Positions 34,821 to 39,148 of a stretch of DNA of 64,000 bases are shown piece by piece. Made by a program: the position numbers and the translations under genes. The stretch lies in the sequence record PZ386977.1. One strand, written 5' to 3'. The stretch is from a phage. Each line of letters begins with the position of its first letter. Position 1 is the stretch's first letter. The notes under the pieces were generated by a model. The model saw only the letters and a list, made by a program, of their open reading frames with translations, made no database searches and was not told where the DNA came from.

Positions 34821-35391
34821 AAAAGTTTCGGATTTGTTCCCAATTCAGAGAACGAAGATTATTACGAGAGTACTGAATTACTTCAATACCGGCTTGTTTA
34901 AGAATGTCTGCCCAATTTTCAGGAGATCTGTCATATAACTCAGCGTATACAACCTTTTTAATACCTGACTGCGTAATAGCTTTAGTGCAATCAGGACATG
35001 GAGAAAGCGTAGTATATAACGTAGCACCTTCAATAGAATTACCTTTACGAGCTGCAAATAAAATTGCATTCAATTCTGCATGTATTTCGTTATTAGCAGA
35101 CCATGCACTATGAGCAGCCCGATGTTCTTTAGCTAAAACAAAATTATCTACCCGTCCAAATGCTGTAGTGCCTTCTTTATGTCCAGCAACGATGGCTGGG
35201 ATTGGTTTATTCTTCAACCAACCATTTTCAGATGCATGTTCGCAACAGTTAACGCCACCTGCAGGTGAACCGTTATATCCAGTAGAGATAATGCGTCCAT
35301 CTTTTTCAATGACGGCACCAACTTTCCATGAACAACATTTTGATTCTTGAGAAATCAGATATGCAATCTGAAGGTATGTGCTAGCTTTCAT
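34810..35391 (-). CDS. cd: dCMP deaminase
   Basis: 193-aa ORF; zinc-binding motifs HAELNAI and SPCPDC. Confidence 0.93.
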   Translation of the reverse strand: MKASTYLQIAYLISQESKCCSWKVGAVIEKDGRIISTGYNGSPAGGVNCCEHASENGWLKNKPIPAIVAGHKEGTTAFGRVDNFVLAKEHRAAHSAWSANNEIHAELNAILFAARKGNSIEGATLYTTLSPCPDCTKAITQSGIKKVVYAELYDRSPENWADILKQAGIEVIQYSRNNLRSLNWEQIRNFCGE

Positions 35392-36383
35392 TATTGAACC
35401 TTATTAATATAAGTTAACAGCTCTTTAGTTTGTTCCCAACTGATGCACGCATCGGTAACGGAAATGCCATAGGACATATTATCAGAAATTTTTTGATTTC
35501 CTTCATGTAGGAACGATTCTATCATAATTCCTTTGACCAAATCATTAGCTGCTAAATTTTTACCAATACCAATTTGATTGCTATAATGCCCTTCAGCGTT
35601 TGCATGGCTACAGTCAACCATTACATAATGATTCAGACCTACTGCCCTTGCTTTGTTAGAAGCTTCTTGAATATCAGAAGAATGATAGTTCGGGCCGTTG
35701 GTCCCGCCACGCAATACGATATGCGTATTCTGATTACCTTCAGCTTCAACAATGCCTACAGTACCATCGACGTCCATACCCATATACCGATGAGGCCAGG
35801 CGGCACTATACATCGCGTCTGTAGCTACTTTAATAGAACCATTGGTTGCGTTCTTGAAGCCTACGCACATCGGTAGACCTGAAGCAATTTCACGATGTGT
35901 CTGACTTTCAGTCGTACGGGCGCCAATAGCAACCCATGAGAAAATACCAGAAAGATACTTAATCGTGAATGGGTCTAATACTTCAGTTGCTAATGGAAGT
36001 CCCATACGTAGAAGTTTACGACACAATGTTCGTGCAACTATAAGACCGTGGTTCATATCAAAACTTCCGTCAAGATATGGATCATTTACAAGACCTTTCC
36101 AACCTACGGTAGTTCGAGGCTTTTCAAAATAAACGCGCATCACTAACAGAACATTAGGAAGACGAGTTTGAAGTTCAGCCAGACGTTTGCCGTATTCAAC
36201 AGCAGCAATAGGGTCATGAATTGAACAAGGACCTACAACAATAAGTTTGCGTGGGTCTTCACCATTCATAATCGAATTAACTTGTTCGCGATGAGAAGCC
36301 ACTTGTGATGCGTAAGCTTCCGACAAAGGAATAATCTCAGCCAGTTCTTTTGGAGAAATAAGTTTTCCGACGACAGGTAACAT
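35391..36383 (-). CDS. 3-deoxy-D-arabino-heptulosonate-7-phosphate (DAHP) synthase, class I (AroG/AroF/AroH type)
   Basis: 330-aa ORF with motifs GPCSIHD, KPRTTVGWKG, GARTTESQ, LRGG, DCSHAN, ESFLHEGNQ, TDACISW; stop overlaps cd start (TAATG). Confidence 0.9.
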   Translation of the reverse strand: MLPVVGKLISPKELAEIIPLSEAYASQVASHREQVNSIMNGEDPRKLIVVGPCSIHDPIAAVEYGKRLAELQTRLPNVLLVMRVYFEKPRTTVGWKGLVNDPYLDGSFDMNHGLIVARTLCRKLLRMGLPLATEVLDPFTIKYLSGIFSWVAIGARTTESQTHREIASGLPMCVGFKNATNGSIKVATDAMYSAAWPHRYMGMDVDGTVGIVEAEGNQNTHIVLRGGTNGPNYHSSDIQEASNKARAVGLNHYVMVDCSHANAEGHYSNQIGIGKNLAANDLVKGIMIESFLHEGNQKISDNMSYGISVTDACISWEQTKELLTYINKVQ

Positions 36384-36503
36384 AACAATCCTTAGGAGAT
36401 ATAAACAGATTCTGATTCAACAATACCTTTAACCGGATTAGACAGGCTAAGTTGGTAGTGCTCAGATTTATGACCATTCTCGATAGTAATGAGATAACTC
36501 TCA

Positions 36504-36740
36504 TTATAGTGTTCCGTATACTCGAGTTGCTTCAACAAGACCATCACTGCCTAATTTAAGATTAGTAATTTGGTCACCATCTTTAGGATTAACGATTACG
36601 AGAAAAGAACGTGGAGATTCTTGAATAACTCGTAATGTTGCATCTTGGAAACGTTCAGACACTTTATTGATGAGTGCTTGAGCAAATTCTTTTACTTTAA
36701 TCTGAAATTCGTGTACTGTAATTGGGTTTTCACTTAGCAT
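36504..36740 (-). CDS. hypothetical protein (78 aa)
   Basis: ORF with RBS GAGGAAA and early promoter upstream. Confidence 0.55.
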   Translation of the reverse strand: MLSENPITVHEFQIKVKEFAQALINKVSERFQDATLRVIQESPRSFLVIVNPKDGDQITNLKLGSDGLVEATRVYGTL

Positions 36741-36800
36741 TTCTATTTCCTCATTTGTTGGTAGAGTTATAGTATCACAACTCCACCGTGTTGTAAACCA

Positions 36801-37076
36801 TTAAATTGCTTTGCATTCAATTTTTTGTGTACCGAAATTGATATCACATTGGATAACTAAATCGCCGTCAAGATCAAATACCACTATGACGTGTGCAGAC
36901 CCAGGGAGAAGAGTAATAGCAATAGAATCTACTTGGTCTGGGAGCAAAGCATTGAGTACATGAGTTAGTTGAGCATGAACTCTGAGTTCGGCTGCATTAT
37001 CAAGCACTTCAAACATATTATTAGCAATAATCTGACTGAAGACTACCTTTACAATTTCAGAATAAGTTGGGAACAT
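36801..37076 (-). CDS. hypothetical protein (91 aa)
   Basis: ORF in early cluster. Confidence 0.55.
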   Translation of the reverse strand: MFPTYSEIVKVVFSQIIANNMFEVLDNAAELRVHAQLTHVLNALLPDQVDSIAITLLPGSAHVIVVFDLDGDLVIQCDINFGTQKIECKAI

Positions 37077-37083
37077 AATTACC

Positions 37084-37308
37084 TCAGTGTACAGTATTTA
37101 CTTTAACTCGAACAACAAATCGCTCGGTCGGTTCACCTACAGGAACAAACTCTACATGATATTCGCCTTTGTAACGAGTATTCAGATCATTACGAATTCC
37201 TGCGAGTTTGTTAATTAATGTAGGACTCATATTAAGTCCCACTAGTTTACGAAGCATTTTGTATGCTTCATCTTCGATTTCATGATGTTTATCGTACATA
37301 GTTTTCAT
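37084..37308 (-). CDS. hypothetical protein (74 aa)
   Basis: ORF in early cluster. Confidence 0.5.
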   Translation of the reverse strand: MKTMYDKHHEIEDEAYKMLRKLVGLNMSPTLINKLAGIRNDLNTRYKGEYHVEFVPVGEPTERFVVRVKVNTVH

Positions 37309-37479
37309 TTAACCATTCAATTGCCTGGTCGACGTTATCAAATATACCACCGTCCAAACGTTCTTCATGCTCATAGTCCAGCACATCAATACCGAACTGT
37401 CCATTTACTAAAGGCCAGGCAACAAACAAATATTCTTTATGCCGTTCAATGGCCTCAATCACTTCATATAATCGTTTCA

Positions 37480-37480
<1 letters not shown>
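37289..37480 (-). CDS. hypothetical acidic protein (63 aa)
   Basis: ORF coupled to pseT start. Confidence 0.5.
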
Positions 37481-38566
<1,086 letters not shown>

Positions 38567-38567
<1 letters not shown>

Positions 38568-38866
38568 TATTTTATTCCTAAGAAAATTTCAAGAATACGA
38601 ATGTTATGCTCGCGCCGGTCTTTATTAATTTCAGCAACGTTTTTATTAATTGACGTACTTCTAACGTTTGAAGAAATAAATTTAATCATATGACTTTTGA
38701 GTTGTTGCAAATCCAACCCTTTTTCTTTAGCAGCTTTACGAAGAGCTTTACCTGCTTCATCTAGCGCCTTTGCTGCATCTTTGTCATAATTGCCAAGTGA
38801 CATTCCGCGACAGATATCAATATACTCATCAGACCGTTTGATGTAATTCTCTAGTAATGTTTTCAT
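38567..38866 (-). CDS. hypothetical protein (99 aa)
   Basis: ORF in early cluster. Confidence 0.5.
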
Positions 38867-38923
38867 TTAGATTTCCTCAATTATCCATAGGAGCATTATA
38901 ATCTGCTCCTGAGAGTTTGTAAA

Positions 38924-39148
38924 CTATTTTACTAAAGATTCAATATACTCGTGAAGAGCTTTAGTCGCTACTGCCCACTTATTCTGATATTCATTTTTCA
39001 GATTAGCACGAGACTGAACTAACAATCGGTCATTAGTCGGAGGCAAAGATTCTAATCGTTGAATCTGGCGCCCATAAATCATAGCCGCCATTTCAGATTC
39101 ATAGATAAGCCCTTTAATGTATTCATGCTGTTCTTTAGTCATTGGCAT
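38924..39148 (-). CDS. hypothetical protein (74 aa)
   Basis: ORF overlapping the o-spanin stop. Confidence 0.5.
   Translation of the reverse strand: MPMTKEQHEYIKGLIYESEMAAMIYGRQIQRLESLPPTNDRLLVQSRANLKNEYQNKWAVATKALHEYIESLVK

Follow-up and report, generated by a model that had tools for sequence, protein, structure and literature searches.

In phage T4, a run of small genes occupies the interval between pseT, which encodes polynucleotide kinase/phosphatase, and cd, and three of them, cd.4, cd.3 and cd.2, are entered in UniProt as 'conserved hypothetical' (P39500, P39499 and P39498). All three products have been detected as proteins by mass spectrometry; cd.2 gives early RNA and early protein, and cd.3 and cd.4 give early RNA and middle protein, the class in which PseT and Cd also fall (PMC9697503 supplement). 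T4 annotation treats PseT and RnlA as a tRNA-repair pair. Here we compare this interval with positions 36504..37480 of a 64,000-nucleotide (nt) stretch of phage DNA (record PZ386977.1, hereafter the window), where four small minus-strand open reading frames (ORFs) of 78, 91, 74 and 63 amino acids (aa) lie between a DAHP synthase gene and pseT. A prior sequence-only reading had placed these ORFs exactly where the ORF list has them and had held that none could be assigned. Three of the four are homologues of T4 Cd.2, Cd.3 and Cd.4, and the fourth is a member of the RB69 ORF227c family. The T4 relative of one of them, cd.4, counts among the four genes for which T4 shows its strongest host-specific need on a clinical E. 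coli isolate, beside three genes of tRNA repair, tRNA processing or Septu inhibition, which provides a testable lead.

Inspection of the protein alignments reveals exact orthology for most of the cassette. The 63-aa ORF aligns with T4 Cd.4 over 63 of 63 residues at 52% identity (E 3e-27), matches phrog_2360 (E 2.5e-33) and stands directly after pseT; by full-length similarity and position it belongs to the T4 Cd.4 family. The 91-aa ORF is 79% identical to T4 Cd.3 and the 78-aa ORF is 67% identical to T4 Cd.2. Against a gathering threshold of 27 bits, they score 119.4 bits with Pfam DUF7355 (positions 1-93 of 93) and 120.9 bits with DUF7320 (positions 1-77 of 78), respectively, which makes each a member of its family and contradicts the earlier statement that the cassette has no recognisable motifs. 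The 74-aa ORF falls in phrog_3609, a family that the JS98 annotation describes as 'similar to RB69 ORF227c'. One PHROG family is matched by each of the four ORFs (E 1e-33 to 1e-41), and the CRISPRi-ART supplement assigns T4 cd.2, cd.3 and cd.4 the same PHROG numbers as the window ORFs (PMC11879866). The 1.4 kb around the cassette is 98.9% identical to Escherichia phage Mizar and is matched by 156 phage records, nearly all from Escherichia or Shigella T-even phages of Mosigvirus type. The DNA here is the segment from pseT to cd in a T-even coliphage of that type, and every gene of the segment is on the minus strand.

Two published genetic screens bear on the requirement for these genes. Knock-down of T4 cd.1-cd.5 caused no fitness defect, and the genes are listed as 'Not Fit' (CRISPRi-ART, PMC11879866). 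Transposon mutagenesis of T4 and Bas37 likewise classes the cd genes as 'Non-essential', with insertions tolerated at nearly every TA site (bioRxiv 10.1101/2025.11.20.689424). The resampling tables of the same preprint (Extended Data Tables 6 and 7) compare the T4 library on K-12 with that on CFE299, a clinical, uropathogenic E. coli isolate (bioRxiv 10.1101/2025.11.20.689424). On CFE299, T4 cd.4 is depleted with a log2 fold change of -2.93, following pseT (-5.27), nrdC.1 (-4.80) and cef (-3.99), each at an adjusted p of 0.00000, and the other genes of the block are neutral at an adjusted p of 1.0 (cd.1 -0.33, cd.3 -0.30, cd.2 -0.01, cd.5 +0.06; bioRxiv 10.1101/2025.11.20.689424). The cd.4 effect is not polar, since neutral values are seen both for cd.5, positioned between pseT and cd.4, and for the genes that follow cd.4. 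In Bas37, the gene with the length and position of cd.4, bas37_0053, gives -2.26 on CFE299 (p 0.010) and +0.12 on CFT073, and Bas37 pseT gives -1.90 on CFE299 (adjusted p 0.00000; bioRxiv 10.1101/2025.11.20.689424). A bas37_0053 deletion construct was built, and the authors state that the most strongly depleted genes were deleted (bioRxiv 10.1101/2025.11.20.689424).

Read together, these values suggest that T4 cd.4 behaves on CFE299 as anti-defence genes do, dispensable in one host and then required in another, with the same trend in Bas37 and without a comparable pattern for cd.2, cd.3 or cd.5. The anti-defence or host-takeover role that had been proposed for the whole cassette thus gains support for the 63-aa ORF, by way of its T4 and Bas37 counterparts, and none for the other three. 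With respect to the genes depleted alongside cd.4, nrdC.1 inhibits the Septu system of CFE299 (bioRxiv 10.1101/2025.11.20.689424), and Septu cleaves tRNA-Tyr (PMC13096335). Several further T4 genes are significantly depleted on CFE299 in Extended Data Table 6 (sheet Data S9), namely dsbA (-2.01), rnh (-1.57), vs.1 (-1.20) and rpbA (-1.17), and these are not named as hits in the relevant main-text passages of that preprint (bioRxiv 10.1101/2025.11.20.689424).

All four ORFs are genes under purifying selection and not chance ORFs. Relative to phage JS98, the ratio of nonsynonymous to synonymous substitution rates (dN/dS) is 0.18 for Cd.4, 0.11 for the 71-aa protein (the probable product of the 74-aa ORF, see below) and 0.12 for Cd.2, as compared with 0.13 for pseT and 0.14 for cd. 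For Cd.3 the synonymous rate (dS) is saturated, and the proportions of nonsynonymous (pN) and synonymous (pS) differences are 0.31 and 0.76. Transcription proceeds through pseT, the Cd.4 gene, the 71/74-aa gene, the Cd.3 gene, the Cd.2 gene and a further small frame, ORF5. The stop codon of pseT and the Cd.4 start overlap (TAATG), the 71-aa gene (start 37299) and the Cd.4 gene overlap by 11 nt, and the GAGG Shine-Dalgarno of the Cd.3 gene overlaps the 71/74-aa stop codon, with the Cd.3 start 7 nt further on. A gap of 60 nt separates Cd.3 from Cd.2, and ORF5 overlaps the 3' end of the Cd.2 gene. These overlapping or abutting codons, along with the early RNA of the T4 orthologues, bear out the description of a tightly packed set of early genes. 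The set itself is amended in two respects: ORF5, an annotated frame, had been missed, and the 74-aa ORF is probably shorter than listed. An Rfam search of the region gave a sole match at E 0.76 and no family, and a repeat search of the region returned none. Table 1 collects the coordinates.

Table 1. Genes and transcription signals of the pseT-side region of the window
Feature	Position	Strand	Basis or family
Cd.4 homologue, 63 aa	37289..37480	-	ORF list; phrog_2360
RB69 ORF227c-family ORF, 74 aa (probably 71)	37084..37308	-	ORF list; phrog_3609
Cd.3 homologue, 91 aa	36801..37076	-	ORF list; DUF7355, phrog_1695
Cd.2 homologue, 78 aa	36504..36740	-	ORF list; DUF7320, phrog_1504
ORF5, 50 aa, ATG at 36544	36392..36544	-	ORF list, annotated in Mizar; phrog_15876
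T4-type early promoter (putative), GTTTAC-18 nt-TACTAT, TG before -10	36769..36798	-	Pattern match
Shine-Dalgarno GAGGAAA, 5 nt before Cd.2 ATG	36746..36752	-	Sequence; conserved in T4
pseT (polynucleotide kinase/phosphatase), upstream gene of the unit with the first three small ORFs	37480..38379	-	
DAHP synthase gene, in the slot held by cd.1 in T4	35391..36383	-	
Strong early-type promoter (putative), GTTTAC-18 nt-TATAAT, ahead of the 99-aa ORF	38895..38924	-	11/12 consensus matches

Examination of the promoter signals divides the cassette between two transcription units. An early promoter sits inside the cassette, between the Cd.3 and Cd.2 genes, with GTTTAC at 36798..36793 and TACTAT at 36774..36769 and a predicted transcription start near 36762. 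The Cd.3/Cd.2 gap is 85% identical to the cd.3/cd.2 gap of T4, both hexamers and the GAGGAAA included, and the T4 record annotates the early promoter Pe133295 there. By pattern and conservation, this is a genuine T4-type early promoter orthologous to Pe133295. The sequence-only reading had recognised it together with the ribosome-binding site GAGGAAA, which is present; its range of 36755..36790 is displaced by about 8 nt, and the promoter precedes the 78-aa ORF alone, the other three being coupled to pseT. The promoter is predicted to drive the Cd.2 gene, ORF5, the DAHP synthase gene and cd, restarting transcription at that point. The strong early-type promoter farther upstream is the probable start of a transcript that would carry the 99-aa ORF, a 63-aa ORF at 38376..38567, pseT, Cd.4, the 71-aa gene and Cd.3. 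The first three small ORFs of the cassette are distal genes of the pseT unit. This two-unit picture fits the T4 protein classes, where Cd.2 alone in the block is early and Cd.3 and Cd.4 are middle.

Across the window, the pattern GTTTAC-N16-19-TANNNT occurs at 17 sites versus 4.15 expected, a count reached in 0 of 100 shuffles, and the minus strand carries 16 of these sites. These sites, at about four times the expected frequency, include 10196, 25819, 33186, 40301 and 61779; many of the early-type sites have the extended form GTTTACAA...TGnTACTAT, and the 17 together offer a ready map of candidate early promoters in the window. Inside pseT, some 280 nt upstream of where Cd.4 begins, positions 37763..37787 of the minus strand carry a MotA-box-like middle-promoter pattern, in which TGCTTCA is followed by 10 nt and then by a -10 hexamer of the form TAnnnT. 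The window holds 13 copies of this pattern versus 5 expected, mostly on the minus strand, and the copy in pseT might give a middle-mode transcript for the small genes. Two more small minus-strand ORFs lie upstream of pseT, at 38376..38567 (63 aa, phrog_8683) and 38567..38866 (99 aa, phrog_2364), where T4 has pseT.1; the Mizar annotation gives no T4 match for them.

To place the cassette among its relatives, we set tblastn counts for each family beside those for PseT. Matches to Cd.2 and Cd.3 were found in 794 and 912 phage records, respectively, and PseT at a minimum of 60% identity in 759, and by this comparison Cd.3 and Cd.2 are near-universal in enterobacterial T-evens. The Cd.4 family has matches in 686 records and the 71-aa family in 338, none of the latter from Tequatrovirus. 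Twelve loci were compared gene by gene (T4, Mizar, JS98, KSKp, CBH8, phiR1-RT, Melville, KMB20, 4S, Potts1, ABTNLPp2 and EcS1). The Cd.3-Cd.2 pair is present in 12 of 12 and adjacent in 11, a single inserted ORF separating the two in JS98, and in 9 of the 12 their stop and start codons overlap or lie at most 2 nt apart. Turnover across these loci involves the slots of cd.5, cd.1, the 71-aa gene, the DAHP synthase gene, a homing endonuclease and JS98 orf212. At the level of the genus, 151 of the 156 matching records retain 80% or more of the 1.4 kb, in almost every case with an identity of 90% or higher, and changes in gene content appear between genera only, and not for Cd.3 or Cd.2.

The designation of this region as an accessory island is therefore not upheld. 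The cassette is a conserved, already catalogued T-even block rather than a novel or strain-specific island, and the presence/absence mapping across T4-like phages that had been suggested for it resolves into a constant Cd.3-Cd.2 pair with individual slots around it that vary. As sequence, the cassette genes are ordinary: well over 100 near-identical genomes of Mosigvirus list them as hypothetical proteins. In much larger collections, relatives turned up only on short fragments or on contigs of phage size, about 170 kb. Among 1.84 billion proteins, the Cd.4 family has about 12 real representatives; two candidates, P0066 and P0076, were set aside as repeat proteins, and two others, P0053 and P0056, as assembly chimeras with a PheT B5 domain. 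A search with a concatenated Cd.4, Cd.3 and Cd.2 profile returned almost exclusively Cd.3 relatives and gave no alignment depth for Cd.2 or Cd.4.

The 63-aa Cd.4 homologue is acidic, with an isoelectric point (pI) of 4.45 and a net charge of -8. In phage EcS1, ORF236 (153 aa; locus L012, 1788-2249) is an in-frame fusion of two domains, one of them Cd.4-like but diverged (hhalign E 1e-4, probability 57%) and the other a Cd.3 domain. The start methionine of Cd.3 is replaced there by glutamine (QFPRYTEV), and a separate Cd.4 gene lies just upstream of the fusion.

The 91-aa Cd.3 homologue is likewise acidic (pI 4.45) and is hydrophobic, with a grand average of hydropathy (GRAVY) of +0.59. Its AlphaFold2 (AF2) model adopts an alpha2-beta4 arrangement with a predicted local distance difference test (pLDDT) score of 90.2 and a predicted template modelling (pTM) score of 0.81, and its top match in BFVD is Cd.3 of phage VR7, at a template modelling (TM) score of 0.97. 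Foldseek comparison with viral models lists DUF7355 orthologues followed by sheath-initiator and baseplate-W proteins (E 3e-3 to 2e-2). At the level of fold, the Cd.3 model thus weakly resembles gp25/IraD. Sequence identity to IraD and to the gp25/gpW/TssE sheath-initiator fold is 8-12%, and a Pfam scan of the 91-aa protein at E <= 1 gives DUF7355 alone, with no GPW_gp25 match. IraD, the E. coli anti-adaptor of RssB, is a stand-alone module of Cd.3-like shape that can act purely by binding a regulator.

The 74-aa ORF probably starts at its second ATG (37299, the fourth codon), judging from all 35 aligned homologues and the Mizar annotation, so that its product would have 71 aa. It is a member of the RB69 ORF227c/JS98 orf214 family at 65-100% identity, and JS98, Melville, KMB20 and Potts1 likewise carry one of its genes in this slot, immediately ahead of cd.3. 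Pfam has no entry for the family, and T4 has no member of it. Identification of the ORF with T4 Cd.5, which belongs to phrog_2430 and holds a neighbouring slot, was rejected, as no BLASTP alignment was obtained at E <= 100 and the ORF falls in phrog_3609 instead. The AF2 model of the 71-aa protein is a compact alpha/beta structure of alpha2-beta2 order, and the two modelled products, this protein and Cd.3, have pLDDT values of 89 and 90.

A helix-plus-hairpin pattern seen by eye had raised the idea that Cd.2, Cd.3, the 71-aa protein and ORF5 are tandem paralogues. This idea was rejected at the sequence level: when the Cd.2, Cd.3 and 71-aa alignments were compared profile against profile, the probabilities stayed under 1%. 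The AF2 models of Cd.3 and the 71-aa protein match many common PDB chains, and the two may share an architecture. All four products are small cytoplasmic proteins, with no database match or obvious sequence motif suggestive of catalysis and no catalytic sites in the models. Sequence and profile searches of the PDB, as well as NCBIfam, gave no useful match for the four proteins, and a PADLOC scan, which models defence systems and not anti-defence genes, gave no match to the cassette proteins. A full-text literature search by DUF and UniProt identifiers returned nothing, and the accessory-gene screen of Silas et al. does not mention the cassette region.

The Cd.2 gene is the first after the internal early promoter. 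In the T4 RefSeq record (NC_000866; locus L002, 4200-4290), the ATG beside the Shine-Dalgarno opens a frame of 17 codons closed by a stop, and the annotated cd.2 of 76 aa begins instead at a GTG in a different frame. The T4D annotation used for HIDEN-SEQ has a cd.2 of 240 nt, and alignments to other T4 records span all 78 aa; a 1-nt indel or a strain difference at the 5' end of the gene probably sets the T4 reference apart. ORF5, found in 140 records of Mosigvirus only, matches DUF7320 in its C-terminal half alone (positions 43-76, 28.7 bits) and has a local match, SYLITIE, to Cd.2 of Klebsiella phage Potts1. It has no BLASTP match to the resident Cd.2, and its reading as a recent duplicate of that gene was rejected on this ground. 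From its sequence, ORF5 would be the remnant of a divergent, foreign cd.2 allele adjoining the DAHP synthase gene, and it looks like the scar of the recombination that brought that gene in. A search for the donor lineage of ORF5 found none.

Some slots of the block recur in more distant phages. A DAHP synthase gene directly follows cd.2 in four genera, represented by the window phage, Serratia CBH8, Klebsiella Potts1 and Escherichia EcS1, with coordinates in the other loci of L005 2731-3747, L010 3271-4263 and L012 2481-3491; the Potts1 enzyme is 67% identical to the window protein. Either the gene was acquired long ago and has been repeatedly lost since, or the slot is a hotspot for insertion. 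In Enterobacter phage KMB20 (L008 1772-2491), a homing endonuclease gene lies between pseT and the 71-aa gene, the slot of cd.4 elsewhere, and a putative homing endonuclease also adjoins pseT in Bas37. The pseT-side interval appears to be a target for mobile endonucleases.

The explanation that we favour, and in which we place somewhat more belief than doubt, treats the cassette as a conserved pseT-cd block whose products are stoichiometric binders. All four products would act by binding another protein, not as enzymes, and small protein-binding modulators are our best guess for Cd.3, Cd.2 and the 71-aa protein. The Cd.4-type protein would work in or alongside the phage response to host-defence damage of tRNA, either blocking a host nuclease directly or assisting PseT-dependent repair; we infer this link from the co-requirement on CFE299 and from the coupling of the Cd.4 gene to pseT. 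Cd.3 and Cd.2 would form a conserved and often translationally coupled pair, probably acting jointly on a target common to enterobacterial hosts. A more specific proposal, which we advance tentatively and hold to be on the doubtful side, is that the Cd.4 family, the 63-aa ORF included, is a previously unrecognised counter-defence factor against the tRNA-targeting immunity of natural E. coli, as a nuclease inhibitor or as a needed partner of PseT/RnlA, and that Cd.3, fused to a Cd.4-like domain in EcS1, is part of the same machinery. Several points weigh against the favoured explanation. The cd.4 phenotype comes from T4 and Bas37, which are Tequatrovirus, and not from the window phage, whose protein is 52% identical. 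The bas37_0053 value fails multiple-testing correction (adjusted p 0.31), and the source is a preprint whose main text is silent on cd.4 and reports no defence pairing for the bas37_0053 deletion (bioRxiv 10.1101/2025.11.20.689424). The link to tRNA damage rests on genes co-required in one host, a partner protein is known for none of the four products, and Cd.3, Cd.2 and the 71-aa family have no phenotype of any kind. If the cd.4 lead is borne out, the classic PseT/RnlA account of tRNA repair would gain a new small protein, and a family found in about 700 T-even genomes would gain a function.

The same observations can be arranged differently. If all four products were dedicated inhibitors, each of a different host immune system, one would expect the early, small and K-12-dispensable genes that are found, two of the four products are strongly acidic, and the genes adjoin pseT and rnlA, which counter anticodon nucleases according to T4 annotation. 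The host-specific requirement for cd.4 also agrees, as does the precedent of nrdC.1 and tk.4, T4 genes once of unassigned function that proved to be inhibitors (bioRxiv 10.1101/2025.11.20.689424). We nevertheless find this arrangement unlikely, because Cd.3 and Cd.2 are near-universal and syntenic (794-912 records) and the cassette is invariant within its genus, unlike typical anti-defence genes with their fast turnover. Moreover, the hits named for the T4 library against RexAB, RnlAB, CBASS, DarTG1, DarTG2 and minimal medium include no cassette gene, cd.2 and cd.3 among them, and in the CFE299 tables cd.2, cd.3 and cd.5 are not depleted (bioRxiv 10.1101/2025.11.20.689424). A comparably low probability attaches to the view that the products are accessory subunits or regulators tuning phage enzymes, either PseT/RnlA RNA repair or dCMP deaminase and the dNTP-synthesis complex. 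Their location, flanked by pseT and cd, holds in all genera examined and the Cd.4 gene is translationally coupled to pseT, but KSKp and CBH8 keep pseT and cd with no Cd.4 gene detectable in the interval, and T4 gene order is a weak guide to the function of small ORFs. Cd.3 and Cd.4 share the temporal class of PseT and Cd (PMC9697503 supplement), and cd.4 and pseT are co-required on the same host, whereas cd.3 and cd.2 have no phenotype where pseT is required (bioRxiv 10.1101/2025.11.20.689424). A reading in which annotation artefacts or non-functional remnants make up some of the ORFs, or all of them, has a probability close to nil: the ORFs are short and of unassigned function, and ORF5 does resemble a gene fragment, but dN/dS values of 0.11-0.18 equal those of pseT and cd, the genes are conserved in hundreds of genomes, the T4 proteins are seen by mass spectrometry (PMC9697503 supplement) and the AF2 models are confident. 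For the four main ORFs, this reading is effectively refuted.

Compared with the closest described systems, the window replaces what had seemed an unassignable cassette by exact orthology to a T4 block, with corrected transcription units. Like T4, the window phage has its cd.4, cd.3 and cd.2 genes in the same order relative to pseT and cd, with the same early promoter and Shine-Dalgarno between cd.3 and cd.2. T4 carries cd.5 between pseT and cd.4 and cd.1 after cd.2, and the window phage is without both; instead, its cd.4 and cd.3 flank a gene of the ORF227c family, and its cd.2 is followed by a cd.2 fragment and a DAHP synthase gene. With respect to function, the nearest precedents are T4 NrdC.1, the Septu inhibitor, and Tk.4/AdfM, described by HIDEN-SEQ. 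For these two, the defence system was matched by means of clean knock-outs, whereas for cd.4 no pairing is reported and its product has no sequence similarity to either. Both precedents are small proteins, formerly of unassigned function, that T4 can do without on K-12 and needs on a particular host, and cd.4 is alike in these respects on CFE299, where nrdC.1 is needed too.

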